NCBI GenBank assembly: GCA_041390285.1
Contig: JAWKQD010000002.1
Location: 131,205-195,204 of the forward strand
Source of the DNA: Thermodesulfobacteriota bacterium
GTDB lineage: Bacteria; Desulfobacterota_D; UBA1144; Nemesobacterales; UBA2774
Direction: 5' to 3'
Length of the DNA stretch: 64,000 bases
A program made the translations under genes and the position numbers. Positions within the stretch are counted from its first letter, which is position 1, and each line of letters starts with the position of its first letter. Positions 27,013-46,521 of the stretch are shown in pieces. The notes under the pieces were generated by a model that saw nothing but the letters and a program-made list of their open reading frames with translations, did not search any database and was not told where the DNA came from.

Positions 27013-27315
27013 CACCATATCCTCCGCAGGATAATTATAAATCAGCGGCAGTATTATAAACAGGAATTATTAAGACGATATTAAGGATAAAACACGAACG
27101 CACTACTTGAAGAATGCACTTTCGACCGTCTCCCGTTCCCTTATGACGCACGGCTCGCCGTTCTCTGAAGCACGTCAGGCGGGCGCGGGAATATGAATGT
27201 CCCGGACTGTGGTATGTTGTACGCCCCAACGTTTTTGACCACTAGCCTGTCTCCCGGTCCAAGCGGCGGGAGAGCTCGTTCTCGTTATAATGTCGGTCTG
27301 TAGACACAGCGGCCC

Positions 27316-30671: not shown

Positions 30672-30705
30672 GAATTCCTCTTTGTCGTCATCGTTATAAC
30701 CCTGG

Positions 30706-31554
30706 CTAATTCCTCATGAGGACCACGGCGTATATACCGTACGGGTCCATCCTTACGACAGGATCTCTGAACCCGGCCTCCTCGGCCCAGCCTATGACGA
30801 GGTCTTTGTCGCGAAGGTGCCACACGCACGGCCCCCCGTCCTGATTCACGAGCGTCCGCGCTATGAGCTCGATCTGCTCGTTATAGGTCTGCACGTTGAA
30901 GAGAAGCGCCTCGGGGGCGACTATCTCGCGAAGGTCGGCCAGGTGTTTCTTTACCAGATCGTCGTCATGTATGATGCCGTACAGCCCGGCCTCTATCGCG
31001 AGGTTCGGACGCGCGGGAATAGCGCGGAGGCTTTCGGTGTCGAGGGCGTCCCCGACTTCGAAGCTGACCCTGTCCCTGAGCCCGCTGGCGAGCGCCGTCT
31101 CCCGGCTCTCGGCGAGCGTTTTCTCGCTTATGTCCCTCAGGAGAACCTTCACATTCTCGCCCGCGTCCTTGAGCACCTCGTATATATAATCGGCCCTGCC
31201 GGACGCCAGATCGACAATGAGCGTTTCGTGCCCGGACCGCTCGTTTATGAACCCGGATATCGCGTCTATCTGTATCTGCTTTACGGCGCGGAAGGCCTTG
31301 CACGTGGTCTGATCGAGAAAGGCGGCGTCGAGCCATCTGCCGATAAAAGACTTTCCGTGCGGCACATTTTCATATATGTAATTCATTATCATTCCCGAAT
31401 CGAATCCGTACCGGAATCCGGTATCTATGCCGTCCGAGAGGCGTCCTACGGTCCTCAAAAAAAGCCCGGCGGCGAGATAAAAATATTTCTTCGGGTCGCT
31501 CCCGACGAGGGGCCGCTTAAGCTCCTCGAAGGTGGGTATGCTTTTACGAGACAT
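30706..31554 (-). CDS. Class I SAM-dependent methyltransferase
   Basis: 282-aa intact ORF. Motif I-like LIVDLASGRADY, acidic loop LLRDIS, then VGDALD. Start overlaps the end of the upstream gene. Confidence 0.65.
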   Translation of the reverse strand: MSRKSIPTFEELKRPLVGSDPKKYFYLAAGLFLRTVGRLSDGIDTGFRYGFDSGMIMNYIYENVPHGKSFIGRWLDAAFLDQTTCKAFRAVKQIQIDAISGFINERSGHETLIVDLASGRADYIYEVLKDAGENVKVLLRDISEKTLAESRETALASGLRDRVSFEVGDALDTESLRAIPARPNLAIEAGLYGIIHDDDLVKKHLADLREIVAPEALLFNVQTYNEQIELIARTLVNQDGGPCVWHLRDKDLVIGWAEEAGFRDPVVRMDPYGIYAVVLMRN

Positions 31555-32112
31555 ACCATTTGATCTCCTCGTCTTCCCTGTCGGCGTATATCTCGTCGGC
31601 CACCTTCTTCACATCCTCGGCACGCTTTTTGAGCTCCGGCGTTTTGGCGTTCTCGGCGAAATACTCTTCCAGGTACGCGAGATGCTCTCTCACATCCTTA
31701 TGCACCGCTTCAACTACTCTTCTTACTCTCCGGGTCGGCCGCGCTTTCGTACACATCAAGAAGCGCCGAGAAGTGAATCAGCGACCCCCATGCGTAAGCC
31801 ATGTCATCGAACGTGTCGTCGTAGGCTTCGAGTATGTCGTATATCTTCTGCCCTATGGCGGGAGGCTCATAGGTCTCCGGCGTCTCCCCCGAGCTCGCGT
31901 GCCCTGTCCGAAAAGAGCTTCGCGTGCCGTGCGTTGTCGGCGATTATCCTCGTGGCGACGAGCTTCGTATCGAGGTCTTTTATGGACTTCAACTTCCCTC
32001 CGAAAAGGTCCACCCACGACAGCATGCCGTACGTATGCCTGCTGAACGCGCGGGCTAGGCGCTTCGGATCGGAAAGGACTTCTTTTAACCTGTCGGGATT
32101 CCTTATGCTCAT
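31544..32112 (-). pseudogene. Helical, ferritin-like/four-helix-bundle-type hypothetical protein, 1-2 frame changes as sequenced
   Basis: ORF 31867-32112 (..TRIIADNARHAKLFSDRARELG..), a middle frame (ETYEPPAIGQKIYDILEAYDDTFDDMAYAWGSLIHFSALLDVYE) and ORF 31544-31759 (..VVEAVHKDVREHLAYLEEYF..). E/D-x2-H-type motifs suggest a metal site. The family assignment is tentative. Confidence 0.35.
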
Positions 32113-32131
32113 TCTTTATCCTTTTGCAGTT

Positions 32132-32581
32132 TCAGTACATTTTCTTGAGTATTTCGAGGACCTTTTCGTCGCCCTTCGCGGGGACTTCCCAATCGACCTG
32201 AATAGTCTTCACACCCTGCGCATCGAGGGCCTCCTTGAATATGTCGAGCCCTATGTTTATGACGCGCATCTCCTGCCCGAGGATATCGCTCCCCTTCCCT
32301 GCCTTAGAGGAAGATGCGGTAACCGCCGTTTCCATCTCCGAGAGTACAGAGGCCGCCGCGTCTTCCGAGTCGGCCTCGACGACCATCACGAGGTCGGACC
32401 CCGCCGCCGCATTTATATCGTCCGTCACGAGGCCAGCGTCCTTCAGCGCGAACTTGGCCTTGTCCGTGGCCATCACGGCGACCGCCTTTTTGACCCCTTC
32501 CTTTTCGGACATGCTCTTCGAGATCCGCATGAGCCTGAGGGCGTCCTGGAAGTAATTCTTTTTTATGATGAATTTCAGCAC
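32132..32581 (-). CDS. Stand-alone protein homologous to the FdrA N-terminal domain
   Basis: 149-aa intact ORF. MLKFIIKKNYFQDALRLMRISKSMSEKEGVKKAVAVMATDKAKFALKDAGL aligns with the N-terminus of the fdrA gene in this window (VVKKNHYRDSMKLMQISQKLSGAQGVKNAAAIMATEANLAMLKDAGL). Confidence 0.6.
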   Translation of the reverse strand: MLKFIIKKNYFQDALRLMRISKSMSEKEGVKKAVAVMATDKAKFALKDAGLVTDDINAAAGSDLVMVVEADSEDAAASVLSEMETAVTASSSKAGKGSDILGQEMRVINIGLDIFKEALDAQGVKTIQVDWEVPAKGDEKVLEILKKMY

Positions 32582-32618
32582 TAAATATCTCTCCCGTTTT
32601 CGTGTTTCTACTGCGCCC

Positions 32619-33020
32619 CTATTCGCCCGGCCGTGCGGTCTCGTAGTCCATCGGGCAGGACTGCGATACGGCGTTACTGACGAAGCAGTACCTTTTCGCT
32701 AGCGGCATTATGACTTCGAGGTCGGCTTCGGGAAGTGTGCTTATCACCCTCACGACTATCCTGCTGAACGTGAAATTTTTCGGATCCGTATCTCCGAAGG
32801 CCGTGACCTTCATGTCGCTGACGCTGACTTTCCTGTTCTTCGCTGCGTAAACGAGCGCCATGCAGAAGCACGACGCAATCGACGCTAGGAAGAGCTCGGT
32901 CGGCATCATGCCCGTGTCGTCGCCGCTGTACTGCGGCGGCTCGTCTACGGGGACTTCGAACTGCCGTGCCGTCACCTCCACCTGATACTTCGTCTTCCAG
33001 ACGGCATTTACCTCAAGCAT
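32619..33020 (-). CDS. OsmC/Ohr family protein
   Basis: MLEVNAVWKTKYQVEV...PTELFLASIASCFCMALVYAA...RYCFVSNAV. Start set at the internal ATG at 33020, which overlaps the end of the upstream GT by 8 nt. Confidence 0.75.
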   Translation of the reverse strand: MLEVNAVWKTKYQVEVTARQFEVPVDEPPQYSGDDTGMMPTELFLASIASCFCMALVYAAKNRKVSVSDMKVTAFGDTDPKNFTFSRIVVRVISTLPEADLEVIMPLAKRYCFVSNAVSQSCPMDYETARPGE

Positions 33021-34210
33021 GGCTTCCCGCCCTTTTGATCTTTCCTTCGCTCCTTTCCTCCAATATCGAGCCGTAAAGCTCCGCGTGCCTCTGCGCCGCG
33101 CTCTCCCAGCTATAGAACCTGGCAGTCTCGTCGCCGCTTGCAGCAAGACGCGCCGCCAGCTCCGGGTCCTCCACAACTTCGAGGATGCCGCGCGCGAGTC
33201 CCTTGTAGTCCGAGGGATCGACGAGCACTGCGTTCTCGCCGTTTCTGAGAAATTCCGTCATAGGCGGAATGTTCGACGACACGACCGGCACGCCCGCCGA
33301 CATTGCTTCAAGGAGTACTAGCCCCCAGCCCTCTTTCACGGACGGAAACGCGAACACGTCCGCCGAAGCGTAAAGGAGCGGCATCTTCCCGCCGGCACGT
33401 TCCCGAGCACGATCACGTCCGAATTCTCTTTTAGTCCGAGCCGGGCGAGCTCCGAGAAAAACTCGTGCCTGTATGCCCTGTAATCGAAGAGGGTCTCCCT
33501 CCCCGATGAGCCATACGAGCCTCTCGCCCTGTGCCGCGAGATAGGCCTTCGCGGCATTGTACGCACGAAGCGCGGTTATGGTGTTCTTCCGGGGCTCGAT
33601 GCCTCCGATGCTCAGCATCACCTTCGCCCCCTCGGCTCCGAACTCCTTCTTTGCGGATTCCTTATCCCCGCCCCGGACGGAGCTGTAAGTCCCGTAATCG
33701 ACGCCGTTGTTTATAACCTCGGACTCGAGTGAATATTTCGCTTCGAGCTCCTTTTTCCAGTGCTCGCTCACGGCGATCAGGTAATCAGGCTCCTCGCAGG
33801 CTCTTGTCCTGACATTCGATGAGACACGCCGACGTAAAATCGTCCACGTGGTGAACCGTCCTCACGTAACTGTCTATATGCCCCTTCTCGCGAAGATTAA
33901 GTAGCGCATTCGCCGATATGCAGTCCTCCGCATGGAGGATGTCGTAATCGAGACCCTCCGCCGCGAGGTACGAAGTATATGTATCTATGTAGTCCGTAAT
34001 CTTTTCGTCGATGCCCCAGTACTCTTTCACAGGGCACTGTATCAGCGTATGCGGCACCCCGACCTCCGACGGAAGCCCTTCCCCGTCGAAAGGGCGTAAA
34101 CGTGCACGTCGTGGCCGAGACGCGCAAGGCTCTCTGCCAGATTTATCGTGTGCGTAACGCCGCCCCTGGGCTTCGTCGAATACGTGAGCAGTGCAATCCT
34201 AAGCTGTTTC
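33013..34210 (-). pseudogene. GT4 glycosyltransferase (position reminiscent of the MSMEG_0565-type GT of Nit1C clusters), at least 4 frame changes as sequenced
   Basis: N-terminus MKQLRIALLTYSTKPRGGVTHTINLAESLARLGHDVHVYAL. ORF 33785-34057 (..VHHVDDF..). ORF 33013-33771 with FPSVKEGWGLVLLEAMSAGVPVV. An internal out-of-frame stretch is restored by ORF 33336-33566. Confidence 0.7.
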
Positions 34211-35188
34211 ATCGATCTCCTCTAGCTCTATGCGTGAAATCAAAAACCTCATGCCGTAATATATGCCGACCGCGGTGTCCGAGCCCGACGTCTCGCCCAT
34301 TTTCACGAGCGTCCGGGATGCGGCCGCTACCTCGTCCGGGTTCTTCGAAACGATCGCGTAAACGAGCTCCCGCCGGGGCCGGCGCTTCGCCGCGTGCGGC
34401 TTCGTCCAGGTAGCTCACGCTGTATATGGTGGTCTTGTCCTTCGCCCTTTTTATTATTTCTGTTGCAAATTTATCTATGAACCCGGGAAGCGTGCGGTCC
34501 CTCTCGCAGGAGAGGAGTCCTATACCCCTTTGAGTCCGAATACGAGCCCGGCGAGGAAATCGTCGCACGAGGGCGTAAGCCCCGGGCCCAGCCCGAGTAT
34601 CTGCCCCGCGTTTTCGGCCGCTCCGTTCAGGTCGCCCGAGAAAAGCGCCCACATGAGCCTTTCGATATAAGGCCGCGCCCTCTCCGCGACCGACGGCTTC
34701 TGCTCCTTTAGGAACACATCCATCGGGCCCCTGAGCTCGACGCTTTCGAGGAGTGATACAAGCCCCTCGCGAGAGGGATGCGTATATATCACGTCGCGGA
34801 GCACCCTCATGTTGAGGTTCATTTCCTCGAGCCCTAGCCGCTTTTCAGGGATCGGGCGGCGCGTTCCAGACATCAACTTCCGACAGGTCCACGGCGAAGC
34901 CGCCACGGGCGGCGCGAAGCGCCTCCGGAAGGCTGTTATCTCTTCCCCCTCTACCAGACCTGCCGATTTGAAATCGGTATGTGCGTCGCTGAAAACAGCT
35001 ATAGAGGCGGGGCCGATGTAATCCTTTTCGGTAATAATCTTCACGAGTGTATCTCCTGCGCCCTTCAAATAAACCGCGTGCTCGAAGACGCCCTCAACCA
35101 CCGCTCTTTCACCCTGTTTCAGTATTTCCCCTGCTCTGTATCCCGCCGCCTCGGCTTTAAAGTTAATTCGCTCTTTTGTCTCGCTCAT
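34197..35188 (-). pseudogene. ylbF: DUF2877 family protein (YlbF-like), about 2 frame changes as sequenced
   Basis: ORF 34520-35188 ends in the DUF2877 signature GLGPGLTPSCDDFLAGL. The C-terminal part (..ASRTLVKMGETSGSDTAVGIYYGMRFL..) is in other frames. Stop overlaps the GT start. Confidence 0.7.
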
Positions 35189-35266
35189 AGCTTCTGCGGA
35201 AGGGCTCCGTCAAGCGGCGCGCGCGAGTGTCCCCGCGGCCGAGCCGCTCCCGGCGCTCCCCGTAAT

Positions 35267-35511
35267 TCAATTATATTTCTTCCAGTGGGGCCGCTTTCCG
35301 GGATATGCGCTTAAGAGAATGATCTTCCTCCTGAGGCTCCACGGAACGGCAAGGTAGAGCGGGACGAAAATATTCCTCCAGAAAAGGGGACCGAGGCCCC
35401 TTCGCGGTAAGGTTTCGCGCACGATTCCGGGTACCGCGAAATCATCTGGTCGTCCGCGGCTTCCATAAGATATTTTTCAGCGTTCTCTCTCAGCCAGTGT
35501 CCGAATGCCAT
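35267..35511 (-). pseudogene. Small hypothetical protein, one frame change as sequenced
   Basis: MAFGHWLRENAEKYLMEAADDQMISRYPESCAKPYREGA.., then in another frame ..WRNIFVPLYLAVPWSLRRKIILLSAYPGKRPHWKKYN. No family recognised. Confidence 0.25.
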
Positions 35512-35546
35512 GACCTAACCTCCCGAAGCGTTTCTATGAAACCGCG

Positions 35547-36894
35547 TCAGCCATTCTGCTTAAGTTTCGCGAGACCGGCCTGCGCCGCGAGCGCTATAGG
35601 CTCCATAAGGGCCCCTATCGGCGGCGAGTACACGTTCTCCATCCACGCCAGCTCTTCGAGCTTCACCCCTCGCTTTATGACGAACGCGAGGAAGTCGGCT
35701 CGCTCCTTTATGCCCTCTCCGCCGGACATCTGCGCTCCGAGCACACGGTGCGTGGCCGGGTCGGCTATGAGCTTCACCCTAAGCCTGCTTACGCCGGGGT
35801 AATACCTCGCCCTCGAAATGCCCATCGCGAATGCTACGACGTGCGGTATGCCGAGCGCCTTGTGGAGCGTCTCGCCCATCGATACGCCGCCCACCTGCAC
35901 CTGTCCGCCGACCATGCCCCACGGTATGAAAACCGGGTCGTATGAGCGGTCTTCGCCAGCTGCATTAGCGGCGGCAATGCGGCCCTGCGAATACGCGTGG
36001 CTGCCCGAAAGTCCCTGTATCGGGATGTCGGTAACGCCGTGTACTACCTCGGCGCAGTCGCCGGCAGCGTACGTCCTTGGCGGATGTCCGCATGTGGTCG
36101 TCTACGAGTATTCCGCCCGTCGAGCCTATTTCGAGCCCGGCCGCGCGGGCGAGCCGGTTGTTCGGCTTCTTCGGGAAGGCCACGACGACCGAGTCGCACT
36201 CTATCTCGCCCGATGTCGTGACGACGGATTTAACTTTCCCTCCCTCGCCCTTGAACTCGAGCACCTTCGTCCCGAAATGAAGCTTCGCCCCCATCTCTTC
36301 GAGCGATTCCTTCACGGGCTCCATGATATCCGGGTCGGCGACCTCGGACATTATCCACGCCCCCTCTTCGACGAGGTGCGTTTCGAGCCCCCTGTGCGCG
36401 AGGTTCCCGGTCATCTCGATGCCGAGCGGCGTCGCGCATACGACGACCACCTTCTTTATGGTGTCGAGGAACTTGTCGTACTCCATCGCGCGCCGTATGT
36501 TCTTCACGTAATGAACGCCTTCGAGGTCGATTCCGGGAATCTCCTGTATGTCGTACTCGAAGCCGGTCGCGATTATGAGCCTGTCCCATCCGTAAGACTC
36601 CGTCCCCGCGCTTATCGTGCGGTTGGGAATATCTATGTTTGTAACAGTAGTCCTGAGCTTTAGGTCTATGCCTATCTTCGCGTAATGCTCGGACGTCTGG
36701 AGGAAGAGATTCTCGAAGCTCGGAATCTCCCGCCCATGAACGAACGGTATGCCGCACGGGCTGTATGCGACGTCCTCGAATTCGGAAAAGAGTGTCACGG
36801 AAGCGTCCGGGGCCAGGGATTTCGAAGTCGAAGCTGCCGAAATCCCGCCGGCGCCGCCGCCTATTATCACTATTCGCAGTTTATCTTGAGCCAT
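35547..36894 (-). pseudogene. FAD-dependent pyridine nucleotide-disulfide oxidoreductase (CoA-disulfide reductase / NADH oxidase type), two frame changes as sequenced
   Basis: LRIVIIGGGAGGISAAS (FAD GxGxxG), single redox Cys AYSPCGIPF, second Rossmann VVVVCATPLGIEMTG. ..DVYAAGDCAEV in an intermediate frame. Dimerisation domain in ORF 35547-35915. Confidence 0.8.
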
Positions 36895-36981
36895 ATATTC
36901 TACCTTTTAATTTTTTGTCAGCCCGGCGCGCCGCCCCGGCTCCCGCCGGCCCCCCTGATAGAGGAGCCGGCCGACTGGGGT

Positions 36982-38109
36982 TCAGCTAAGCCTGACTGGT
37001 TTTACGAATTTCTTGAACTTGACGTTCCGGGCAAGCGCCCTCTCAAAATCGGGCAGAACCGAACACTCGCCGCAGCTCACGCACCCCGCGATACTGCTCT
37101 TGGACGCGCTGCCGTACCTGGCGAGTATCTTCGCCGCCTCGGTGTAAACGTATGACATGATCTCCGGCTTCGGAGGCTTTATGTCCTCCATCGGCGTGCC
37201 CGCAACCGGCCTGAAAGGCACGATGAACGGATACACCCCGATCTCGGCGCATAGCTCCGTGCCGTCGAGTATCGTCTTTAGCCTCTCGCCGAGGCCGACG
37301 AGCACGTACGTGCTCACCTGCCACCTGCCGAATACCCGGACGCCTTCCTTCCACGTTTCTATATATTTATCGAGCCCTATCCTCGCCTTCCCCGGGGTCA
37401 CACTTTTGAAAACCTCGGGGTCGAAAGTCTCGATGTGAACGCCGAGAGAATCCACCCCGGCGTCCTTCAGACGGCCGAGCCACGTTAGATCCTCGGGCGG
37501 GATAATCTGAAGCTGTATCGGGACGCCCGTCTCCTTTTTCACCTCGGAGCAAATCTCCGCGTACTTCCGGAGCGCCTTCTCTTCGTCGGGCGCCACCCCG
37601 GAGGTGAAAACGACGTTCGTTATCCCGTCGAGCTCCTTCGCCAGCTTTATAGTCTCGACCAGGCTCTTCGCGTTCTTGAACCCGACCGTGCTCCTGTCTT
37701 TCAGTGTGAGCTCTATACCGCAGAACTGACACCTCCTGTCGTCGTTCCAGAAATCGCAGGTCTGGAGCAGGGTCGTCGCGAAAGTGGTCGGACAGTGAAG
37801 GAGCCCGATACGCTGCATCGGTATCCCCACCGACGTCTCGTGCCCGTGAAACTTCGCGCTGCCCATAAGCTCTACCTGGACGAGCGCGACGCCGTCCTTG
37901 AATATCCAGTACTCGTTGTTTATCTGATCGAGATGATAGGGGGACGATGCTACAAAGTCGCCTACGACGGGAACATTCGCTTCACCGTCGGGGAGTATCT
38001 TAAGGTGAATCCCTCCCGTCGGCCCGGCCCCGCCGCTCCTGACGTCCTTCGTGTCAGGAATCCTGAGACCTAAACTCTGCAGCTCTACTTTCAGGGTTGT
38101 TGAGTCCAT
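36982..38109 (-). CDS. Radical-SAM-like enzyme with non-canonical Cys motif (candidate MSMEG_0568-type)
   Basis: 375-aa intact ORF. About 100-aa N-terminal domain, then CDFWNDDRRCQFC (CX8CX2C rather than CX3CX2C), a TIM-barrel-like pattern (VVFTSGV, LGVHIETF), and C-terminal CVSCGEC. Confidence 0.6.
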   Translation of the reverse strand: MDSTTLKVELQSLGLRIPDTKDVRSGGAGPTGGIHLKILPDGEANVPVVGDFVASSPYHLDQINNEYWIFKDGVALVQVELMGSAKFHGHETSVGIPMQRIGLLHCPTTFATTLLQTCDFWNDDRRCQFCGIELTLKDRSTVGFKNAKSLVETIKLAKELDGITNVVFTSGVAPDEEKALRKYAEICSEVKKETGVPIQLQIIPPEDLTWLGRLKDAGVDSLGVHIETFDPEVFKSVTPGKARIGLDKYIETWKEGVRVFGRWQVSTYVLVGLGERLKTILDGTELCAEIGVYPFIVPFRPVAGTPMEDIKPPKPEIMSYVYTEAAKILARYGSASKSSIAGCVSCGECSVLPDFERALARNVKFKKFVKPVRLS

Positions 38110-38231
38110 TTCAGCCCCCTTGGCACTTGGTTTATACGACGATCCGCAGCTTATCCGCCAGATAAACTACGAAGCGAATCCCACTACCGACTGCCCCTCC
38201 GATACCCTTATAACTAAGGATACTAGGAGTA

Positions 38232-38723
38232 TTAGACAGTCCAAGTGTTAAAGATCATCGCTCCAGCTCTGTGGTGCTCGATCACGATATCGAGGATGTC
38301 GGTCGGATGAATCGGCACAACCCCTTCGAGGAAGCTCGATTCATTCTGTCCGAGAAGCGCTGCAGCCGAGAACCTGCATGCGAGCACTTTAATGCCCTCG
38401 CTCATCATCCTGTTCACGAGATTCGGGTAGAGCTGAATCCCTGCGCCGTAACCGTCGTCGCCCACGTTCGGCCATCCCCTGTATACGGGTATGCCGGAAG
38501 CAGGTCCGTAGAAAAGTACGGTCGTGTCGTAACCCTTCTTCTTGGTCCTGATCGCGGTCAGCATGTTGATGCCCGCGACGGAGCCTTCGTAGGGTACCGA
38601 GTGGATGAGGAAAAGGGCCTTTTCTCCCTCTCTGGCTTTATGGTCGGGATAAAGCTTCTCCTCGTAATTAACTAATGCTTTGCCCTTCTCGGGTCTATCC
38701 GCTTTAACTCTGTCTACAGCCAT
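38232..38723 (-). CDS. DsrE-like-fold hypothetical protein (candidate MSMEG_0572/Sll0783-type small protein)
   Basis: 163-aa intact ORF with a strong AGGAGG RBS. ALFLIHSVPYEG..TVLFYGPASG..KVLACRFSAAALLG resembles DsrE/DsrF-like proteins. The family call rests on neighbourhood context. Confidence 0.4.
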   Translation of the reverse strand: MAVDRVKADRPEKGKALVNYEEKLYPDHKAREGEKALFLIHSVPYEGSVAGINMLTAIRTKKKGYDTTVLFYGPASGIPVYRGWPNVGDDGYGAGIQLYPNLVNRMMSEGIKVLACRFSAAALLGQNESSFLEGVVPIHPTDILDIVIEHHRAGAMIFNTWTV

Positions 38724-38978
38724 GACGAATTACCTCCTGAAGTTTATTTGGTTTCCCATACCCGGCGGACTCGCCGGATACTCTTTATTTTCGACGGAAA
38801 CTAAAGCCAAATCCTCGTTTCGGTAAAGCTTCTTATGGTTGTTGCCGACAGCCGAAAGCCAGGCCCCGGACAGGTTAAAAAAGGCCCGATCCTGAAAACC
38901 CCTCACATTCCCCATGATATTACAATCGGCCTTTGAATTCAATGTAATAGGCTCCTGTCCATCTCGTTCATACGGGGC

Positions 38979-39917
38979 TCAGTGGACTATCTCCGTCCCC
39001 TCCTCTCCGTTTATCGCCCGATCTATATTTTCGAGCGAGGTTATGATCGTTTTCTTTCCGCCGGCTCTCAGGAAATTGATGGACGCCTCTATCTTCGGCC
39101 CCATGCTTCCAGGCGGGAAGTGCCCTTCGGCGAAATAGCGCTCGGCCTCGGCCAGCGTCATGCGCGAGATCATCTTCTGATCCGGCTTTCCGAAATTTAT
39201 CGCCACCTTGTCCACGGGCGTTACCAGCATCAATATCTCCGCGTTCACGAGGCTCGCCAGCCTCTGGGCGGCAAAGTCCTTGTCTATGACGGCGGCCACG
39301 CCCTTCAGCCCGCCGCGCGCATCCCTCACCACCGGGATGCCTCCGCCGCCGCACGCTATGACGACGTAATTGTCGTTCGCCATCCTCGATATCTCGTTCT
39401 TTTCGACTATATCCACAGGCCTCGGCGATGGCACGACCCTTCTGTACCCCCTCCCGGAATCCTCCTTCATCACCCAGCCTTCCTTTTCCTGAAGCTCCTT
39501 CATCTCCGCTTCGGTGAAGAATGGCCCGATGAACTTGGTCGGGTTCTTGAAGGCCGGGTCGTCTTCCGAAACGACGACCTGCGTAATGAAGGCGGCGACG
39601 GACCTGTCCATCTTCTTCTGGACGAATATGTTCCTGAGCCGCTGCGCTATCATGTACCCTATCTGCCCCTGCGTCATGGCGTTACACACGTCAAGCGGCA
39701 TGGGGGGGATCTCCGTCGAAAGAGATTCCTGCTGCATCAGGAAGTTCCCGACCTGCGGTCCGTTCCCGTGCGTGATAATGATCTTGTACCCCATGTCGAA
39801 GAGGCCGATTATCCTTCTGCACATCTCATCGGTTTTGAGTATCTGCTCGGAGTAAGTGCTCTTTCCCGTGTGGCTCATAAGAGCATTGCCTCCGAACGCC
39901 ACTACAGCCGCTTTCAT
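38979..39917 (-). CDS. arcC: Carbamate kinase
   Basis: 312-aa intact ORF: VVAFGGNAL, IITHGNGPQVG, YRRVVPSPRP, VIACGGGGIPV, GVAAVIDKDF, FPPGSMGPKIEA. ATGA overlap with the fdrA stop. Confidence 0.95.
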   Translation of the reverse strand: MKAAVVAFGGNALMSHTGKSTYSEQILKTDEMCRRIIGLFDMGYKIIITHGNGPQVGNFLMQQESLSTEIPPMPLDVCNAMTQGQIGYMIAQRLRNIFVQKKMDRSVAAFITQVVVSEDDPAFKNPTKFIGPFFTEAEMKELQEKEGWVMKEDSGRGYRRVVPSPRPVDIVEKNEISRMANDNYVVIACGGGGIPVVRDARGGLKGVAAVIDKDFAAQRLASLVNAEILMLVTPVDKVAINFGKPDQKMISRMTLAEAERYFAEGHFPPGSMGPKIEASINFLRAGGKKTIITSLENIDRAINGEEGTEIVH

Positions 39918-41484
39918 ATATTCTCTCCCTTGTCTCTTTTCACTGCAGGCGTTTTACCTCCGGAGGCGATGTATCCCGCCGCCCTCGACGCGAGGGCGTT
40001 CGTCGGGAATATGAGCACGCCTTCCGATTCCAGCTTTTTTTCCTGCTCGCCGAGCCCCTGCGGGTCCTTTGCCGTCCCGCAAACGTGCGCGACGAACGCG
40101 AGCTTCCGCCCCTTCTTGGCAGCGGCCTTTTTCGCTTCCTTTATCGCGGGCAGTATGTCCCCCGCGGGGTCCGGGCTCGCCACGTATCCGAGGACTATGT
40201 CGAGCAGTATGACGCCGACCTCGGCGTGCGAGGCCTCGCGGACGAGCCTTTCGTTACGTAGCTGCGCGTCTATCATCGGATGAGGACGCCCTACCGTGAA
40301 CTCCTCTTCCCCTAGGTCGAGGCACGTGTGGCGGACGCTCTTCCCCGAATCCTTCAGCTTGTATTCTTTATTTAACGGAGCGTTCGAATAAACGCCGCCG
40401 AGTATCGGTTCGAGCACCTTCTGCGCTTCGTAGCAGAGCGTCCCGCCGGAGAATAATCCCCGGAGGTACTTCTGCCCCGGGGCCAGGGACTTCACGAGCT
40501 TGTCCGCACTCTTCTTCCAGCCGTCTCCGCCCTTGATACCCTCGAGGTCGCCGCCCGCGATCTTTATCGCGCCTATGGCGGCGTCTTCCAGGGTAGACGA
40601 GAAAAAGGTCTTCCCGTTCCCGTGATTGACGTCGCTCCCGAGGAAGCATATGACGGCCGGCTTCCGCGAAGCCTCTATCGCGCTCAATATCTTTTCCGCG
40701 ACGTTCTTCGAGGGCGGCTTCGAAACGAGGACCAGAAACTCCGTTTTGTCGTCCGCTTCGAGGAGCTTTAAGGCTTCGAGTGTCATTATCCCGCCCACGT
40801 CTTCAGAGAGGTCCCGGCCCCCGACGCCTATGGCGTGCGATATACCGACGCCGGAGTTGTTTATGAGGCAGGAGACCTCCTGGAGCCCCGTTCCGGACGC
40901 GGCGACCATGCCGACCGGCCCCCTGTCGAGCACATTCGCGAACCCAAGGCCGACGCCGTTCACTATGGCCGTGCCGCACCCCGGGCCCATTACTAAAAGG
41001 CCTCTCTCTCTCGCTCTCTCCTTTAACTCTATCTCTCTTCACCTTATTCGTAAGATTGTCGCTGAAAAGAAACGTATGAAGCCCCCGTATCTATGGCCTT
41101 TCCGACCCGGGCTTTGCGAACTTGCCCGCAGATACCGCGACCAGATTAGCTCCCGGGAAGCGCGCCGTACGCCGAGCCTGCTCTTGTACTTCTTCGTCGC
41201 TCCGCCCCCGCGCCGGGCGGCGCGAGGAGCGAATCGAGCATGTTTTCACGGCCTCCTCGGCCTTCTCCCCGAATCGGCCTTCACGGCCACTATAAGATCG
41301 TCTGCCGTCGCCTCGGGCATACCTTCAAGGAGGCCCGCATCTTTAAGCATCGCAAGGTTGGCCTCGGTTCGCCATGATGGCGGCGGCGTTCTTCACGCCT
41401 GAGCGCCCGAAAGCTTCTGGCTTATCTGCATCAGCTTCATCGAATCCCGATAATGATTTTTTTAACAACGTGTAAAATCGCCAT
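39914..41484 (-). pseudogene. fdrA: FdrA (succinyl-CoA-synthetase-alpha-like acyl-CoA synthetase family). The 3' 1077 bp is intact; the 5' 500 bp has several frame changes.
   Basis: ORF 39914-40990 reads MGPGCGTAIVNGVGLGFAN..GMVAASGTGLQEV..GISHAIGVGGRDL. Upstream pieces read MAILHVVKKNHYRDSMKLMQISQKLSGAQGVKNAAAIMATEANLAMLKDAGLL, ..DLIVAVKADS.., ..GLHVFLFSDN...EIELKERARERGLLV. Confidence 0.85.
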
Positions 41485-41511
41485 TCTATATAAATCCTTT
41501 TATTCCCTATC

Positions 41512-42794
41512 TTATGCGGCCAGTTTATGCCGCTCCCCGAACGCCATCGCCTTCGAGAAGCACTCGTAAGGGGCATGCACTATTCCCGCGCCGATCTGCC
41601 CCGCGCCCGAGCTCTTGTGGACCACGGCGCTGTTTATGCTGGGCAGAATCCCGTCTCGACGACCTTTCCTGAGGTCGATGCCTGTGGGCGTCCCCTCGAA
41701 GTCGAGCGATGGGATCCCGAACTTGGGGTTCTTCGCGGTCGTTATCTCCCCCATAGCCTTCGTGATAGCGACCGACTCCTGAAAGCTCCACCCGCGAACG
41801 ACGCCATAGAAGGCGCGGCCGCTATGGCGAACCCTGCCGAGGCCCATCGTCTCGATTATGGCGCTGTCGCCTATGTCCGGCGCGCCGTCCCCGGCCGTAT
41901 CCGGGGTTATAGAGCGCATCCATCAGGTAATGGCGAAGGGGCGATGAACCACTCGTCCCTGAGCCCGCTCACCCTGATTCCGAACTCCGTCCCGTTCCGG
42001 GACATCGCTGTCACTATGGTGCAGTTTTCTATGTCCCTCGCCAGTGTCCATCGCCAGCTTGGCGGCCGTCATAGTAAAATTGAGGAAAAAGTGGCTGTTG
42101 CCCGCGATAAACCTGAACGCGCGTATACCCGGTCCGTTTGCAGCCCGAGCGATGGAAAGTATTCGGTGATATTTTTCAGGAAAAGATTAGTCGATGCGGC
42201 GTGCCTGTTGTGGCACTCGTCCCCCATCTGTATGCCCTGTGCAAGGATGCTCCACACGGGAACGCCGCCCATCTTGGCGACGACCTTCTTCATCACCGGA
42301 GCGAATTCGTCGCGCATGAACCTGAGGCGTGTGATCGTCTCTTCCTCGACCGCGCCGAACCAAAGCACCTTCCCGCCGCCCTCGTTGAACGTCGAATACG
42401 CGAGCCTGCCGCTTGCCGTGTCCTTCGTCAGCGATGACGGGCATCAATGCCGAGATTATCCTTCGTCATCGGCCCGACCGGAGCCGTGTGTATGGTTCGA
42501 GTGAAAGCTTATCTTCTTCGATTTCACGAGCTTGTCCACGGATTTCATATCCTGCGCGAGCCCTTCGAAAACCGCCGCCCTCTGACGGCCCTCTGCATGG
42601 CAAATGGCATCATCTCGCCCCACTCTATCGGCGGCCCTGCGGAGTATGGTGTCCGGCGTCATGCCGGGTATCGCATCGGAGAGTACAGTTGCCACTGCCC
42701 ATCACGACAGGCTCCACGGACAGGATATTTTGCACGGCGAGCGCATTCGCCTCGTTTATCAGCCTGCAATGTATCTTTTCGGTTTCGTTTCCAT
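41512..42794 (-). pseudogene. ylbE: DUF1116 family protein (YlbE-like), many frame changes as sequenced
   Basis: Pieces: INEANALAVQNILSVEPV, LSDAIPGMTPDTIL, AAVFEGLAQDMKSVDKLVKSKKISF, NEGGGKVLWFGA..TRLRFMRDEFAPV, IQMGDECHNRHAAST, IVTAMSRNGTEFGIRVSGL, IGDSAIIETMGLG, GIPSLDFEGTPTGIDL, GAGQIGAGIVHAPYECF. Confidence 0.75.
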
Positions 42795-42815
42795 CGCTGT
42801 CTTTTTCAGTCCTGT

Positions 42816-43402
42816 TTACGAAGGCGGCACGGCCAGTATCCACAGCAGCTTCGCCTGCTTCTTGCCGATGTTCTTCCACTTATGGTTAAGGTGCGTCCTG
42901 AAATGAAGGCTGTCGCCCTGCTTGAGTACGTACACCTTGTCGAGCACCTTGAACTGACCGTCCTTGCCGAGGCAGTAAACCAAAGCTTCCTCTCCCGAGT
43001 GCTTCAGGCTTCCTTCCGCTCGTCGCGCCGACGTCCACCGTCGCTACGCCGCCGTCATAATAAAGTCGCCGTATTTCTGCGCCGATATCGCCTTAAGATC
43101 GAGCCCTTGAACGTCAGGATCGGCTCCGCCTCTGCGGGGGACGAGGACCACGTCCTTTCCTCCTCCACTTCCTCGATGAAGTGGCTCACCTTCTTTCCGA
43201 GGGCGTCCGATATCTTCATCATCGTCGTTATGGTCGGTATGATGCCGTTCGACTCTATCTTGTGTATCGCTGCGGCCGAGATGCCCGACCTCTCTGAAAG
43301 ATCCTTTAACGACATGCTCTTTTCGGTTCGAAGCGTTTTTATTTTCTTTCCAGCCTTTGAAACCATGTGGTCAATCTGATTCTTTTCCTTGTTCATTCTC
43401 AC
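42816..43402 (-). pseudogene. XRE-family HTH plus cupin-domain transcriptional regulator, at least 2 frame changes as sequenced
   Basis: ORF 43055-43402 reads IKTLRTEKSMSLKDLSERSGISAAAIHKIESNGIIPTITTMMKISDALG. The cupin part in other frames reads SLKHSGEEALVYCLGKDGQFKVLDKVYVLKQGDSLHFRTHLNHKWKNIGKK. Confidence 0.7.
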
Positions 43403-43447
43403 CCTTATAAAGATTAAAAACGGCCTCTTCAGATACCTGTGAGCGCT

Positions 43448-44383
43448 TCATTTTCGAAATCCCAGAGGAGCCACTTTCCGGGATTCGCCGTCTACGAAAT
43501 AAACCTTTCCGTCGTTTGTCACCTTGCCTATCGCCTCGCACGAAAGCCCCAGCGCCGCGAACCTTTCCGCTACCTCCCGGTCTTCCCGGGCCTTAAAGAG
43601 AGGACGAACCCGTATAGGAACGCCAGCAGCCATTCGCCGAGCGGCGCTTCGAAGGGCCTCGGTATGATTCGACGTTGATGTCGGCCCCCTTGCCCGAGCT
43701 TTCGAGCAGCATCAGCACCGAGCCTATTAGCCCGGCCATGCTGACGTCCTTCGCCGTGTCCATGTTCTCGTCGGCCAGCGACGAAATCTCCTCCAGATGC
43801 CTTACGGCCTCCCTGCCCTCGAGCGTGCTGGAGGAATCCCAGAAATTAAAACCGGATACGAATTTTCCGTTCGGATTGTATATGAATACGAGGTCGTCCC
43901 CTTCCTGCGCGCCGAAGCTCGTAAGGAGTGTTCTTTGCCTTCCAAGTATGAATACGGCAAGCGAAGGGTGCCCCGCGCCGGTGGTTATATGGCCGCCGAC
44001 TACGGGGAACGCCGTAACGCTCCGCGTTGTCCCTGATCCCGCGCAGTATCTCCGGAAAATGCGTTTTCGGTGGAATTCGAGAAGACGACGTCCACCACTG
44101 CCACGGGCCTTCCGCCCATTGCGTATATGTCGCTTATGTTCGTGAGGACCGAAGTGCGGCCCGCAAGGTAGGGATTTTCGGCTACGAGAGGCGGGTAAAC
44201 ACCCTCGCCCGCCAGGAGGAGGTAACCGTCTCCGGTCTTTATCGCCGCCGCGTCGTCGCCGAGGAGAACCTCGCTGCCGTCTACTACAGAAGAGGAAGGC
44301 AAGTGGGTCCAGACGTCACTTATCGCCCGCTTCTGAAACAGCCTTCGACGAAGACCGTATGCTTTGAATGAAGCCTCCTGCAT
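43448..44383 (-). pseudogene. AIR synthase (PurM/ThiL/HypE)-related protein (candidate sll0787-type), several frame changes as sequenced
   Basis: ORF 44000-44383 reads LGDDAAAIKTGDGYLLLAGEG..LAGRTSVLTNISDIYAMGGRPVAVVD. Later pieces read VVGGHITTG, DDLVFIYNPNG, SMAGLIGSVLMLLESSG, ..FAALGLSCEAIGKVTNDG. Confidence 0.7.
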
Positions 44384-44410
44384 AATCTCCTCTTTCAGCC
44401 GGAGGCAATA

Positions 44411-44857
44411 TCAGCCTCCATGAGTTGGTGAGAATACCGTGATATTCCTCGGGGTTTCAATTGGAGTCCATCCCAGTCTTTGGAAAAATCTCACATTCTG
44501 CGGCTGTACGTAGCTAGGAACCTTCGGCACTCGTCCGTGGCCTTCATCGTCTGCACGGCGAACTTCACGAGCCCCATGCCGACGCGCCCGTTCCGGTACC
44601 CGGGAGCGTGCGCTCAGCCGTCCCCCCACCCACGTATCACCCTCTATCCTGTAACACTCGACCGCTCCTACCACCTCGCGCTCGGGGAGCTTCACCGAGA
44701 CTATGTGAATGACTTTGTGGAACGGGTCGGCGTCGAATTCGTCTACGTCCGTCTCGCTGAAAATGCCTTGCTCGGACACGAAAACTTCGCGTCTCAGACG
44801 AAAGTAATCCTCAAGCTCCTTCTCATCCCCGGCAATTTTGAAAATAAACCTTTCCAA
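44411..44857 (-). pseudogene. GNAT N-acetyltransferase (candidate MSMEG_0567/Sll0786-type), about 2 frame changes as sequenced
   Basis: FKIAGDEKELEDYFRLRREVFVSEQGIF....VVGAVECYRIEGDTWVGGRLSA, then other frames ..GMGLVKFAVQTMKA.. and ..VQPQNVRFFQRLGWTPI. Confidence 0.65.
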
Positions 44858-45048
44858 AAGACTATCACTCGGGACCGTTTACTATACTTGACAGCTTATC
44901 AACTTTAGTAAATTAAGTCAAGACATTTTGGATGCCGGAAGCGCCTGATAAAATGCTCTTCTGCATAGACGAAGACAAAAAGGCAATAACCCCGGAAGGT
45001 TCGGTAAATACTGCCCCGCGGTGCGAAAGCGTCCGCGAAAAATTACGG

Positions 45049-45077
45049 TTGACTATAATGCCCGAATTTCCTAGAAT
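45049..45077 (+). promoter_or_regulatory. Sigma-70-type promoter candidate for the fmdB-like/amidohydrolase pair
   Basis: TTGACT (45049-45054), 17-nt spacer, TAGAAT (45072-45077). Lies about 30 nt upstream of the ATG at 45106. Confidence 0.45.
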
Positions 45078-45105
45078 ATATAAAATATAAACTTTAGGAA
45101 ACCCT

Positions 45106-45486
45106 ATGCCTATCTACGAATATGAATGTCACGATTGTGAAAAAGAAGTAAGCATATTTTTCCTGAGTTTTTCCGACGCCGAAAACGAAGAAGCCCTTTG
45201 CCCCGAATGTGGGTCGAAGAAGCTCGAAAGAATCGTCTCCGGCGTAGCCGTCCTTAAAGAAAAAAAGCCGGTTGCCCAAACCCCCTCATCCGGAAGCACA
45301 GCACATAAAGCAGAAGACCCCCAGAGCCTGGCCCGCACGATGGACGACGCGGCCCGGAAATCATCGAAAGGCTACGGGGACGATTTCAAGGAAGTGAAAG
45401 GCCGCCTCGAAAAAGGCGAGTCTTCCACTTCGATCGAAAAGCGCATGCGTAAGCGCGTCGGTGAAAGCATGGATACGCCGCATTGA
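45106..45486 (+). CDS. FmdB-family zinc-ribbon protein (putative regulatory protein)
   Basis: MPIYEYECHDCEKEV....CPECGSKKLERI: the N-terminal CxxC..CxxC zinc ribbon typical of the FmdB family, followed by a low-complexity tail. Confidence 0.8.
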   Translation: MPIYEYECHDCEKEVSIFFLSFSDAENEEALCPECGSKKLERIVSGVAVLKEKKPVAQTPSSGSTAHKAEDPQSLARTMDDAARKSSKGYGDDFKEVKGRLEKGESSTSIEKRMRKRVGESMDTPH

Positions 45487-45527
45487 CAAAACGACAATAA
45501 CGAAACGCGTCCAAGGAGGGCAATATC

Positions 45528-46382
45528 ATGAGCGTAGTAAAGAGAAAGAAAGTTTTCGACAATCATTCGCATATAGGCCCCGTGCCCGGATTCGCATACT
45601 ACGGGCTGCCCCAGGCCGTAAAACCCACAACGGACTACGACACGACTGATGCATACCTGAAGGGCATGGACGGCCACGGCGTCGACCGCGCCCTCGTCAT
45701 GGCGAACTACGGCTACCCCGATTCGGCCCAGCCGTTCACGCTTAACCCGCTCGTCGGCGAAAGCGTGCAATCGACGGACAGGCTCCTCGGCCTAATATGG
45801 GTATCGGCGCTTCCGAAAGATAAAGAGCGGACGACCGAGGCGCTCAAGCTCATCGGCGAAAAGGGACTCGTCGGCCTCAAGACGACCTGCCTTCTCGGCG
45901 GCACATTCGACCCCGGGCAGTGGGAGCCCGAGGCTGCGGAGATATGGAAGATGATCCTCGACGCGGCGGCCGACAACGACATGCCGCTTCACATCCACAC
46001 CAGCCCCGGCGGCGGCTCCGACATAGACAACGCCCTCGCGCTCATTAAGGAATACGGGAAGAAGGTGAAGATCCACGTCGTTCACATGGGCGGCGGCGTC
46101 AGCGGGCACATCAAATTTGTCCCACGCTTCTTCGACCTCGTCGAGGAAGGCTACAAGGTCTACACCGACTCGTCGTGGGCGGTCGGGTTCGGCTCGTCGT
46201 GGCTCCTCAAGGAGATCGAGGAAAAGGGCATCGGCGGCGACCGCTTCCTTTTCGGATCGGACATACCGTGGAGCGACTTCGCTTCCGAGTACTGGAAGAT
46301 CGAAGGGGCCGAGATTTCCGAGCAGCTCAAGGACGACATCTTCTGGAACAACGCCGAGAAGCTCTACGGCAAGTTCTGGTAA
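45528..46382 (+). CDS. Amidohydrolase-2 type metal-dependent (TIM-barrel) hydrolase
   Basis: 284-aa intact ORF. VFDNHSHIG (N-terminal HxH), ..LHIHTSPGG.., ..HVVHMGGG.., ..FGSDIPW (C-terminal Asp). Confidence 0.7.
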   Translation: MSVVKRKKVFDNHSHIGPVPGFAYYGLPQAVKPTTDYDTTDAYLKGMDGHGVDRALVMANYGYPDSAQPFTLNPLVGESVQSTDRLLGLIWVSALPKDKERTTEALKLIGEKGLVGLKTTCLLGGTFDPGQWEPEAAEIWKMILDAAADNDMPLHIHTSPGGGSDIDNALALIKEYGKKVKIHVVHMGGGVSGHIKFVPRFFDLVEEGYKVYTDSSWAVGFGSSWLLKEIEEKGIGGDRFLFGSDIPWSDFASEYWKIEGAEISEQLKDDIFWNNAEKLYGKFW

Positions 46383-46496
46383 GCGGTTCCTGGCTGGAGA
46401 GTTGTAGCTCATCAACCTTTCACGTGACGCATTAACGCTCGTGATAGGTACTAATAAGGTACTAATATAGAAGAGCTATATATCTAAAGACAAAAA

Positions 46497-46521
46497 GGGT
46501 GACCGCGCGTCGCCCTTTTTT
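46497..46521 (+). terminator. Rho-independent terminator after the amidohydrolase gene (A-run upstream, so also usable from the tRNA side)
   Basis: caaaaaGGGTGAC-cgcgc-GTCGCCCtttttt: 7-bp stem (one G-U pair), 5-nt loop, T6 run. Confidence 0.65.

Follow-up and report, generated by a model that had tools for sequence, protein, structure and literature searches.

A gene system of Candidatus Dadabacteria best described as a nitrilase-less Nit1C derivative with an AllFGH-carbamate kinase module

The Nit1C gene clusters (Podar et al. 2005, PMC1199592), represented by gpr (MSMEG_0565-0572) of Mycobacterium smegmatis, sll0783-0787 of Synechocystis and nitA-H of Pseudomonas, are found in many phyla, respond strongly to nitrogen starvation and have been tied to cyanide assimilation, NADPH balance, polyhydroxybutyrate (PHB) accumulation and peroxide resistance. 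Induction under nitrogen starvation is on record for the canonical clusters, as are peroxide resistance and a raised NADPH/NADP ratio conferred by that of M. smegmatis (PMC6039565), but no reaction is known for any of the Nit1C enzymes other than the nitrilase (PMC1199592). The MSMEG_0565 glycosyltransferase belongs to many, not all, of the canonical clusters. Separately, FdrA, YlbE and YlbF of Escherichia coli were shown in 2024 by Kim & Kim to be an oxamic transcarbamylase, AllFGH, whose genes share an operon with that of AllK, a catabolic carbamate kinase, and which reversibly converts oxalurate and inorganic phosphate to oxamate and carbamoyl phosphate (PMC11326118). Here we describe a gene system, found in a 64-kb stretch of contig JAWKQD010000002.1 from a Thermodesulfobacteriota bacterium (hereafter the window), in which genes of these two kinds are interleaved. 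The original prediction, made from the window sequence alone, pointed out this combination and described the E. coli FdrA/YlbE/YlbF set as a proposed oxamate carbamoyltransferase, with 'proposed' being outdated by the biochemical demonstration.

The system occupies positions 27103-46382 of the window and consists of a 20-gene co-directional array, read on the minus strand from 44857 to 27103, together with a divergent pair of Zn-ribbon and Amidohydro_2 genes, giving 22 genes over ~19 kb. Its map in window coordinates was derived from a colinear alignment with a closely related locus (L003, 94.5% nucleotide identity), and the gene order was checked by a six-frame reading of positions 28000-48000. 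The twelve minus-strand genes first proposed, running from 44857 to 33013, were thereby recovered with the predicted order and ends, and the intact loci L001-L004 have the same genes. The extent of 12 kb was however too short, since the array continues to 27103 and the system includes an Amidohydro_2 gene that is part of a conserved core. The radical S-adenosylmethionine (radical-SAM) enzyme of the cluster (38109-36982) is 99% identical to a protein from a metagenome-assembled genome (MAG) that is labelled Candidatus Dadabacteria by NCBI.

Repair of the frame breaks followed by comparison with curated family models, as had been suggested with the original prediction, placed nine of the proteins above the NCBIfam or Pfam cut-offs. 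These scores were obtained with the window's own proteins, using intact open reading frames (ORFs) as read and the others after indel repair, and intact orthologues gave the same family assignments. Among the Nit1C families, the intact 163-residue protein at 38232..38723 (minus strand, as are all genes of the array) scored 170.7 bits against a cut-off of 109.85 with TIGR04044 (MSMEG_0572/Sll0783), and the intact 375-residue radical-SAM enzyme at 36982..38109 scored 325.9 against 303.7 with TIGR04043 (MSMEG_0568). The frame-broken GNAT of 154 residues at 44395..44857, with a TTG start at 44857, gave 135.1 bits after repair and 82.7 for the raw ORF against a cut-off of 68.45 (TIGR04045, MSMEG_0567/Sll0786), the AIR-synthase-like (AIRS-like) protein of 325 residues with many indels at 43429..44408 gave 333.8 against 321.3 after repair, with 344.4 for an orthologue (TIGR04049, sll0787), and the frame-broken GT4 glycosyltransferase of 400 residues at 33013..34212, ending at 33013, gave 392.7 against 259.85 after repair (TIGR04047, MSMEG_0565). 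The 163-residue protein had been predicted to be DsrE-like, which agreed with our results, but it is in addition the Nit1C signature ORF1 itself. Its Cys116 was invariant in 48 sequences, one canonical sequence included, and a profile search against PDB matched the DsrE/DsrF-like structure 3MC3 (E = 7.7e-4) over a region covering this residue, for a DsrE/YchN-like assignment; that search was used in place of a single-sequence AlphaFold2 model, which was set aside at a mean pLDDT of 33. In the radical-SAM enzyme, the cysteines of the Cx8Cx2C motif (C118/C127/C130) and of a C-terminal CxxCxxC motif (C343/C346/C349) were likewise invariant.

The proteins of the second gene set were assigned in the same manner. 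AllF/FdrA (39914..41484, 523 residues, the N-terminal third being frame-broken) scored 438.9 bits against 433 after repair with NF004760, with 469.2 for an orthologue, and matched the FdrA crystal-structure sequence PDB 3DMY at 277 bits. Carbamate kinase (38979..39917, 312 residues, intact) reached 400 against 358 with TIGR00746, and its start overlaps the allF stop in an ATGA that could be read directly, as predicted. AllG (41512..42794, 426 residues, many indels) gave 246.7 against 27 with PF06545 and AllH (34199..35188, 330 residues, frame-broken, with the invariant motif GLGPGLTPSCDDF) gave 77 against 25 with PF11392, both after repair; these are the domains earlier named DUF1116 and DUF2877, which Pfam now calls AllG and AllH. 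What the window carries is, as predicted, a nitrilase-less Nit1C-type set interleaved with FdrA, DUF1116, DUF2877 and carbamate kinase.

For comparison with a canonical Nit1C cluster we used that of Allorhizobium ampelinum plasmid pAtS4e (L087), which has the order MSMEG_0572, Nit6803 nitrilase, radical-SAM, GNAT, AIRS, glycosyltransferase, MSMEG_0570, MSMEG_0569 and Pnap_2097, with AllFG being absent. Five families are shared, out of the 7-9 Nit1C families (NCBIfam set TIGR04042-04050), and match the A. ampelinum proteins at 31-52% identity, MSMEG_0572 at 44%, with the window radical-SAM enzyme being ~40% identical to canonical ones. With the PGAP-annotated Nit6803-family nitrilase of A. ampelinum as query, tblastn (E <= 1e-3) matched no frame of the 64-kb window and none of the hybrid loci, in agreement with the predicted absence of nitrilase, and no CN_hydrolase match was found with Pfam in the intact orthologous loci. 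Because tblastn was blank across both the window and the hybrid loci, we consider the name-giving nitrilase truly missing from the cluster. MSMEG_0570, MSMEG_0569 and Pnap_2097 of A. ampelinum similarly gave no tblastn match at E <= 1e-3 in the window or any hybrid locus. In the loci examined, nitrilase and AllFG-carbamate kinase were mutually exclusive.

The likeness to Nit1C clusters includes the five signature families above trusted cut-offs, the co-directional and tightly packed genes, and a flavoprotein and a small ORF in analogous positions. The latter two had been counted as Nit1C gene content, and a CoADR-type flavoprotein and a small ORF do exist here; as judged from NCBIfam and tblastn, however, the 81-residue protein (35267..35511, conserved in 45 loci, with no NCBIfam match at E <= 1e-3 and no Pfam match) does not belong to the ~100-residue MSMEG_0570 family (ORF6), nor does the flavoprotein belong to the COG2072-type MSMEG_0569 family (ORF7). 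The flavoprotein (35547..36894, 449 residues, one 2-bp deletion) is a CoADR/Nox/Npx-type pyridine-nucleotide-disulfide oxidoreductase having TIGR03385 as its top NCBIfam match, at 276 bits under a cut-off of 579, and C47 in its YSPCGIPF motif is invariant. What sets the hybrid apart from canonical clusters is thus the lack of the Nit6803 nitrilase, MSMEG_0570, MSMEG_0569 and Pnap_2097, together with the addition of AllF, AllG, AllH, an AllF-domain protein, carbamate kinase, Amidohydro_2 and OsmC, to which the Dadabacteria further add a ferritin-like protein, a methyltransferase and three enzymes dependent on pyridoxal phosphate (PLP). On these family assignments the window system is best seen as a derivative of the Nit1C ('gpr') cluster that lacks the nitrilase, and as a widespread variant of a known but uncharacterized cluster type. 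We found no description of the combination of Nit1C with FdrA/DUF1116/DUF2877/carbamate kinase in the searchable full-text literature, most subscription journals being outside its coverage, which is in line with the novelty first suggested for it. The A. ampelinum cluster itself is flanked by zwf and gnd, whose products form NADPH in the pentose-phosphate pathway, as well as by a gene of the catalase family (L087 1-2095 and 14531-15607), echoing the NADPH and peroxide phenotypes of the M. smegmatis gpr cluster.

The gene-neighbourhood survey proposed with the original prediction was carried out as a scan by radical-SAM alignment, with one genome per GTDB species, and yielded 76 loci that were scored by tblastn with 22 marker proteins. 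Within the clade having radical-SAM identities of at least 73%, the full set was found in every locus where the flanks reach, covering ~48 GTDB species representatives, closed chromosomes such as those of Dadabacteria (OZ244197, OY729416, OX638332) included, which are labelled Dadabacteria, Thermodesulfobacteriota or 'Deltaproteobacteria'. Overall ~55 species-level genomes carried the hybrid combination, which came in four gene orders, was spread over at least two phyla and was in no case accompanied by a nitrilase. In type A, to which the window belongs, Amidohydro_2 is read divergently from the operon, and type B has it between the genes for carbamate kinase and MSMEG_0572. Type C, seen in 'FK3' deltaproteobacterial MAGs, has the order AllG-AllF-GNAT-AIRS-carbamate kinase-MSMEG_0572-Amidohydro_2-radical-SAM-flavoprotein-p81-glycosyltransferase-HMA, and type D, of Desulfosporosinus, Syntrophomonas and another Bacillota MAG, has Amidohydro_2-MSMEG_0572-radical-SAM-GNAT-AIRS, a GlcD-like FAD oxidase, a CCG/4Fe-4S protein, OsmC and carbamate kinase-AllG-AllF-glycosyltransferase; radical-SAM identity for the Bacillota Desulfosporosinus and Syntrophomonas was 42-44%. 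Among the loci, an intact Dadabacteria one is on SWBZ01006324.1 (GCA_008633285.1) and a Desulfosporosinus one on JARLHV010000155.1. The core surviving all four orders comprises Amidohydro_2, MSMEG_0572, radical-SAM, GNAT, AIRS, the glycosyltransferase, a variable redox partner, carbamate kinase, AllG and AllF. Depending on lineage the redox partner is CoADR-like, GlcD/CCG-like or, in canonical clusters, MSMEG_0569. Types A, B and D all have OsmC, whereas no AllH could be detected in the loci of types C and D.

The survey also returned loci of other kinds. A third kind of locus, found in Desulfobacterota (L008, L009 and L059-L086), combines an NMT1/THI5-type ABC transporter, a radical-SAM::GNAT fusion and an AIRS-like protein, without nitrilase, AllFG, MSMEG_0572 or the glycosyltransferase, and one of these loci (L066, 6853-15194) adds a NUDIX-like ORF and fumarate hydratase; radical-SAM, GNAT and AIRS may therefore, as this gene content suggests, be a minimal functional trio. 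Locus P0110, tried as a canonical Nit1C cluster, was ruled out as such, being of this same transporter and fusion architecture with neither nitrilase nor AllFG. In Desulfobacterota bacterium AH_259_B03_O07 one contig (L007/L048, JALLOG010000095.1) carries the full hybrid, and another (L037, JALLOG010000033.1) a second, 71%-identical radical-SAM paralogue whose context is minimal, with Fur, a 160-residue ORF and a PALP enzyme. Finally, 517 plasmid records, 373 of them from Klebsiella, matched the radical-SAM query at <60% identity and may represent either Nit1C-type clusters or an unrelated radical-SAM family.

Compared with the E. coli module, AllF was 39%, AllG (YlbE) 42% over its full length and carbamate kinase (AllK) 41% identical, with AllH being 35% identical to YlbF over only the C-terminal 135 residues that align. 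The best 120 matches of an AllG homologue search all came from the Dadabacteria clade, and the AllF and AllG proteins of Dadabacteria and Desulfosporosinus are closer to each other (~50% identity) than to those of E. coli (~40%). All four proteins of E. coli allFGHK (fdrA-ylbE-ylbF-ybcF; PMC11326118, PMC9843812) are found here, with translational coupling of allF and carbamate kinase in common. The gene order is however split, with AllG-AllF-carbamate kinase together and AllH lying six genes downstream of them, the surroundings contain no allantoin genes, AllH is 60 residues longer and is absent from two of the four architectures, and the tail of AllF resides on a separate protein. That protein is a stand-alone AllF-domain protein of 149 residues (32132..32581, corresponding to L003 15544-15993, intact ORF, PF27530 with a partial NF004760 match), for which BLASTP gave matches to residues 1-89 and 472-554 of E. 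coli AllF, i.e. an N-terminal HMA-like domain and a segment resembling the C-terminal tail. Since it carries the tail segment that is present in E. coli AllF and lacking in Dadabacteria AllF, it is probably an extra, fourth, subunit of the complex. In Desulfosporosinus an AllF-tail-like segment sits at the N-terminus of AllG, and these arrangements indicate domain shuffling among the subunits of the complex. A second carbamate-kinase-like gene, 33% identical, lies between the 81-residue ORF and AllH in one locus (L055, 12901-13830).

The module is also found next to the triuret/biuret genes of comammox Nitrospira and Nitrososphaerales MAGs (PMC12625717), and because of that placement in nitrifiers we regard AllFGH-carbamate kinase as a portable ureide-splitting unit, which evidently has been recruited as a whole into different clusters for nitrogen-rich compounds. 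The partners in the nitrifiers are the hydrolases biuH, atzF and trtA of a recognizable catabolic route, in contrast to the Nit1C-type enzymes here.

The Amidohydro_2 metal-dependent hydrolase (45528..46382, plus strand, 284 residues, intact; PF04909, 65 bits) is 100% identical in amino-acid sequence to that of L003, and its metal site HxH...H...H...D is intact, with the HxH, H157, H183/186 and D245 being invariant in 38 orthologues; searches of PDB sequences gave no match for it. Its gene is divergent from the operon in the window and lies within the operon in the three other architectures (L020, L010, L061). In one locus two MSMEG_0572 copies flank Amidohydro_2 (L050, 8035-9952). The first gene of the divergent pair encodes an FmdB-type Zn-ribbon protein of 126 residues (45106..45486, plus strand; PF09723, TIGR02605) and its place beside Amidohydro_2 is conserved among type-A loci.

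As for the remaining genes of the array, a regulator of 195 residues with an XRE helix-turn-helix and a cupin domain (42823..43396; Pfam HTH_3 and Cupin_2 in orthologues) is PuuR-like, scoring 66.6 bits with NF007408, which is under the cut-off. An 80-residue ORF at 38730..38971, between the carbamate kinase and MSMEG_0572 genes, is of uncertain status and may not be a gene: it has no NCBIfam or Pfam family match and was found by tblastn only in the closest relatives (L001-L004 and L011-L013), with other Dadabacteria having a ~190 bp non-coding spacer at this position. Beyond the GT4 gene, the array runs through OsmC to a LysA/FslC-like decarboxylase also in L001-L006. Its members there are the intact OsmC-family protein of 133 residues (32619..33020; PF02566, 70 bits), the AllF-domain protein, a ferritin-like four-helix-bundle protein of 188 residues with two insertions (31544..32112), the intact Methyltransf_20 SAM-dependent methyltransferase of 282 residues (30706..31554; PF12147, 180.5 bits) and three PLP enzymes. 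The ferritin-like assignment came from profile searches, with matches to bacterioferritin 1NF4 (E = 1.9e-4) and aldehyde decarbonylases and conserved His/Asp/Glu residues. The PLP enzymes are one of class I/II aminotransferase fold (29283..30671, 462 residues, ORF intact; best matches PRK06225, GntC and VioD-like, all under cut-off), a PALP enzyme of CysK/CBS/SbnA type (28351..29286, 314 residues, frame-broken; TIGR01137 at 362 bits and TIGR01136 at 330, under cut-offs) and, last in the array, a fold-III LysA/FslC-like decarboxylase (27103..28328, 411 residues, frame-broken; TIGR01048 at 193 bits and NF041039 at 161, under cut-offs).

The divergent intergenic region contains two operator-like palindromes of 35 bp each. 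The one at 45067..45101, TTTCCTA-N21-TAGGAAA, overlaps the -10 of a promoter-like site (TTGACT-17-TAGAAT, 45049-45077) facing the Zn-ribbon/Amidohydro_2 genes. The second copy, TTTACTA-N21-TAGTAAA at 44878..44912, overlaps the spacer and -10 of a promoter-like site directly upstream of the GNAT gene (TTGACT at 44921-44916, -17-TAAGCT, conserved in the form TTGACT-17-TAnnnT). The pattern TTTMCTA-N21-TAGKAAA occurs exactly twice in the 64-kb window, as compared to 0.01 expected, with both occurrences in this region, and the palindrome pair is found at the same places in orthologous loci: when 24 distinct type-A loci were aligned, two conserved blocks stood out in otherwise unalignable DNA, each with a palindrome. 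We infer that the in-operon XRE-cupin protein is a candidate binder of both. Generic scans of 26600-46500 were not above expectation, either for sigma-70 promoters (10 versus 8.0 +/- 3.1 in shuffled sequence) or for terminators (23 versus 19.5 +/- 4.5), and for that reason our operon structure rests on spacing and conservation; intergenic gaps in intact loci are mostly <50 bp, with five overlaps. The type-C locus L010 (742-2708 and 15976-19074) has a divergent gene for a GAF/sigma-54 enhancer-binding protein upstream and glnE, encoding glutamine synthetase adenylyltransferase, downstream, together with a -24/-12-like site, TGGCGC-N5-TTGC, at 2497. A sigma-54 activator in one hybrid variant is reminiscent of nitA in Pseudomonas, with the -24/-12 motif being found in L010 only, not in the window or the other types.

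Taken as they stand in the window, no fewer than 13 of the 22 genes have broken frames, and the alignment with L003 had 131 gap events over 19.5 kb, mostly of 1-2 bases, which taken by themselves could point to a decaying pseudogene cluster with real frame breaks. That explanation we consider exceedingly improbable. The indels also hit a housekeeping gene outside the cluster (phosphoglycerate mutase, 46867-48076), they are fewer than half homopolymer-adjacent and gather in stretches as in noisy reads (~85 in the 3.9 kb between 44900 and 41037, 0 in the next 2 kb, and more bursts at 29600-27100), and in the near-identical loci L001-L004, from four other assemblies, every gene is an uninterrupted ORF. 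Once indels were removed, the differences from L003 were overwhelmingly synonymous, with synonymous to non-synonymous counts of 26:0 for Amidohydro_2, 14:0 for carbamate kinase, 58:2 for the flavoprotein, 39:4 for the AIRS-like protein, 39:1 for the PALP enzyme and 66:28 for AllG, and the cluster genes are under purifying selection. Because of this pattern and the broken housekeeping gene, we read the frame breaks as most likely being sequencing or assembly errors in functional genes, not decay. Mismatch rates also climb in the indel-rich stretches (8.3% for AllG and 9.2% for the decarboxylase, as compared to 1.2-2% for MSMEG_0572, carbamate kinase and the radical-SAM enzyme), and the uneven noise looks like locally low-coverage or unpolished long-read sequence. 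In-frame stops in DUF1116 were considered as recoded codons and this was rejected, the stops being by-products of the indels.

As to function, our reading is that positions 27103-46382 constitute one conserved gene system of Candidatus Dadabacteria, in which the nitrogen-releasing and ATP-yielding step falls to AllFG(H), carbamate kinase and Amidohydro_2 in place of a nitrilase, and we give this a probability of roughly 0.45. The shared core would turn a small molecule into an intermediate carbamoylated at an amide or amine nitrogen, i.e. an acyl-urea or ureide, being the counterpart of the nitrile in canonical clusters. AllFG(H) and phosphate would cleave this intermediate to give carbamoyl phosphate, as E. 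coli AllFGH can do with oxalurate, whereupon carbamate kinase would convert carbamoyl phosphate to ATP, NH3 and CO2, and the amidohydrolase would free the remaining amide nitrogen. The XRE-cupin protein would sense a pathway metabolite and control both promoters. By analogy and from context, a ureido/carbamoyl type of substrate, giving carbamoyl phosphate for ATP and ammonia in a nitrogen-scavenging role, is plausible; the direction of the reactions, the class of substrate, the pairing of regulator with operator and the role under nitrogen limitation are as we infer them. Bacterial carbamate kinases operate almost always in the ATP-forming direction, and CarAB is the normal supplier of carbamoyl phosphate for biosynthesis. 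It is because carbamate kinase is almost universally catabolic, together with the other contexts of the module and the nitrogen-regulatory neighbours of the type-C locus, that we favour the catabolic model. Several points weigh against it. The in vitro assays of AllFGH followed carbamoylation, and since AllFGH, like carbamate kinase, is reversible (PMC11326118), the module could supply the carbamoyl group instead of removing it. A set of GT4, radical-SAM, GNAT, ATP-dependent AIRS-like, methyltransferase and three PLP enzymes is seen more typically in biosynthesis than in catabolism, and the glycosyltransferase, radical-SAM, GNAT and PLP genes would suit a biosynthetic pathway no less well than a catabolic one; the PGAP tag 'biosynthetic process' is attached to several canonical families, and there is no transporter for an external substrate in the cluster. 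All three subunits are required in E. coli, yet AllH could not be detected in types C and D, the redox partner varies between lineages, and the argument from replacement of nitrilase by AllFG is correlative.

A biosynthetic role is the main alternative, if on balance rather unlikely. Carbamate kinase would then make carbamoyl phosphate, with which AllFG(H) would carbamoylate an amide or amine of a small glycosylated, possibly thiol-bearing molecule, giving a redox- or stress-protective product; the AIRS-like enzyme would next activate the carbonyl of that group with ATP, in the manner of HypE, and nitrilase or AllFG-carbamate kinase would be tailoring or recycling steps rather than catabolic ones. 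In keeping with this, the GT4 protein resembles the small-molecule thiol glycosyltransferases MshA and BshA (~85 bits), the GNAT matches models of N-acyl-amino-acid-synthase type (PF13444, FeeM), the DsrE-like MSMEG_0572 protein and the CoADR-type flavoprotein both have their invariant, in the latter case redox, cysteines, with the CCG/4Fe-4S protein and GlcD-like oxidase as the Bacillota counterpart of the flavoprotein, and the cluster holds a CysK/CBS-like PALP enzyme as well as the OsmC conserved in three of the types. The M. smegmatis phenotypes (PMC6039565), the zwf, gnd and catalase-family flanks in A. ampelinum and the direction in which AllFGH kinetics were measured (PMC11326118) point the same way. 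Speaking for the catabolic model instead are the usual direction of carbamate kinases and the role of CarAB mentioned above, the fact that in every setting so far understood the four-gene AllFGH-carbamate kinase module serves catabolism (PMC11326118, PMC12625717), and that making a nitrogen-rich group under nitrogen limitation would be counter-intuitive; nor has any Nit1C cluster a known product. An ordinary oxalurate pathway, for the end product of allantoin and purines, that merely happens to sit in a Nit1C-like operon would account for AllF passing the FdrA subfamily cut-off and for the 35-42% identity of the four proteins to their E. coli counterparts. We find it improbable, as no homologues of AllC, AllD, AllE or YbbY were found in the window or in 87 loci (allB was outside this search), the link between the module and the Nit1C-type genes persists across phyla despite rearrangement into four gene orders, AllF and AllG of Dadabacteria and Desulfosporosinus are closer to each other than to those of E. 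coli, and the extra AllF-domain subunit is conserved with AllH missing in two architectures. That the two gene sets would be mere neighbours without a common pathway is very improbable: co-transcription is indeed a prediction from spacing and conservation, with the generic promoter and terminator scans not above chance, but the genes are interleaved rather than juxtaposed, their gaps are short with several overlaps, and the association holds over the four gene orders and at least two phyla.

A more specific version of the chemistry, which we regard as doubtful, would have the shared Nit1C core build or turn over a one-carbon nitrogen group, either nitrile or carbamoyl/acyl-urea, on a glycosylated and possibly sulfur-containing molecule, with the AIRS-like enzyme interconverting the two states by an ATP-dependent dehydration similar to that of HypE, and with different lineages resolving the group either by nitrilase or by the ATP-recovering AllFG(H), carbamate kinase and amidohydrolase. 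HypF and HypE make the cyanide ligand of [NiFe]-hydrogenase, HypE dehydrating a thiocarbamate to a thiocyanate. Here too a carbamoyl group derived from carbamoyl phosphate would meet an ATP-dependent enzyme of the AIR-synthase superfamily, which would offer a chemical bridge between carbamoyl and cyano groups. This is meant as an analogy only, with no claim of membership: there is no HypF, HypC or HypD here, and the AIRS-like protein is of the sll0787 family, not HypE.

The hybrid can be seen as a natural swap experiment, in which the core enzymes were kept and the nitrilase exchanged for a defined module for carbamoyl phosphorolysis and ATP formation plus an amidohydrolase. With this swap the range of chemistry for the intermediate narrows to a nitrile-like or ureide-like C1-N group that is carried by an amide or amine. 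The hybrid also widens the known contexts of the AllFGH transcarbamylase beyond allantoin and presents a probable fourth subunit of that enzyme in the stand-alone AllF-domain protein, while the XRE-cupin protein and the two palindromes offer a candidate regulator-operator pair. Should interconversion of nitrile and carbamoyl groups be true, it would reveal the chemistry of a widespread pathway of nitrogen starvation and redox stress that has been unexplained since 2005.

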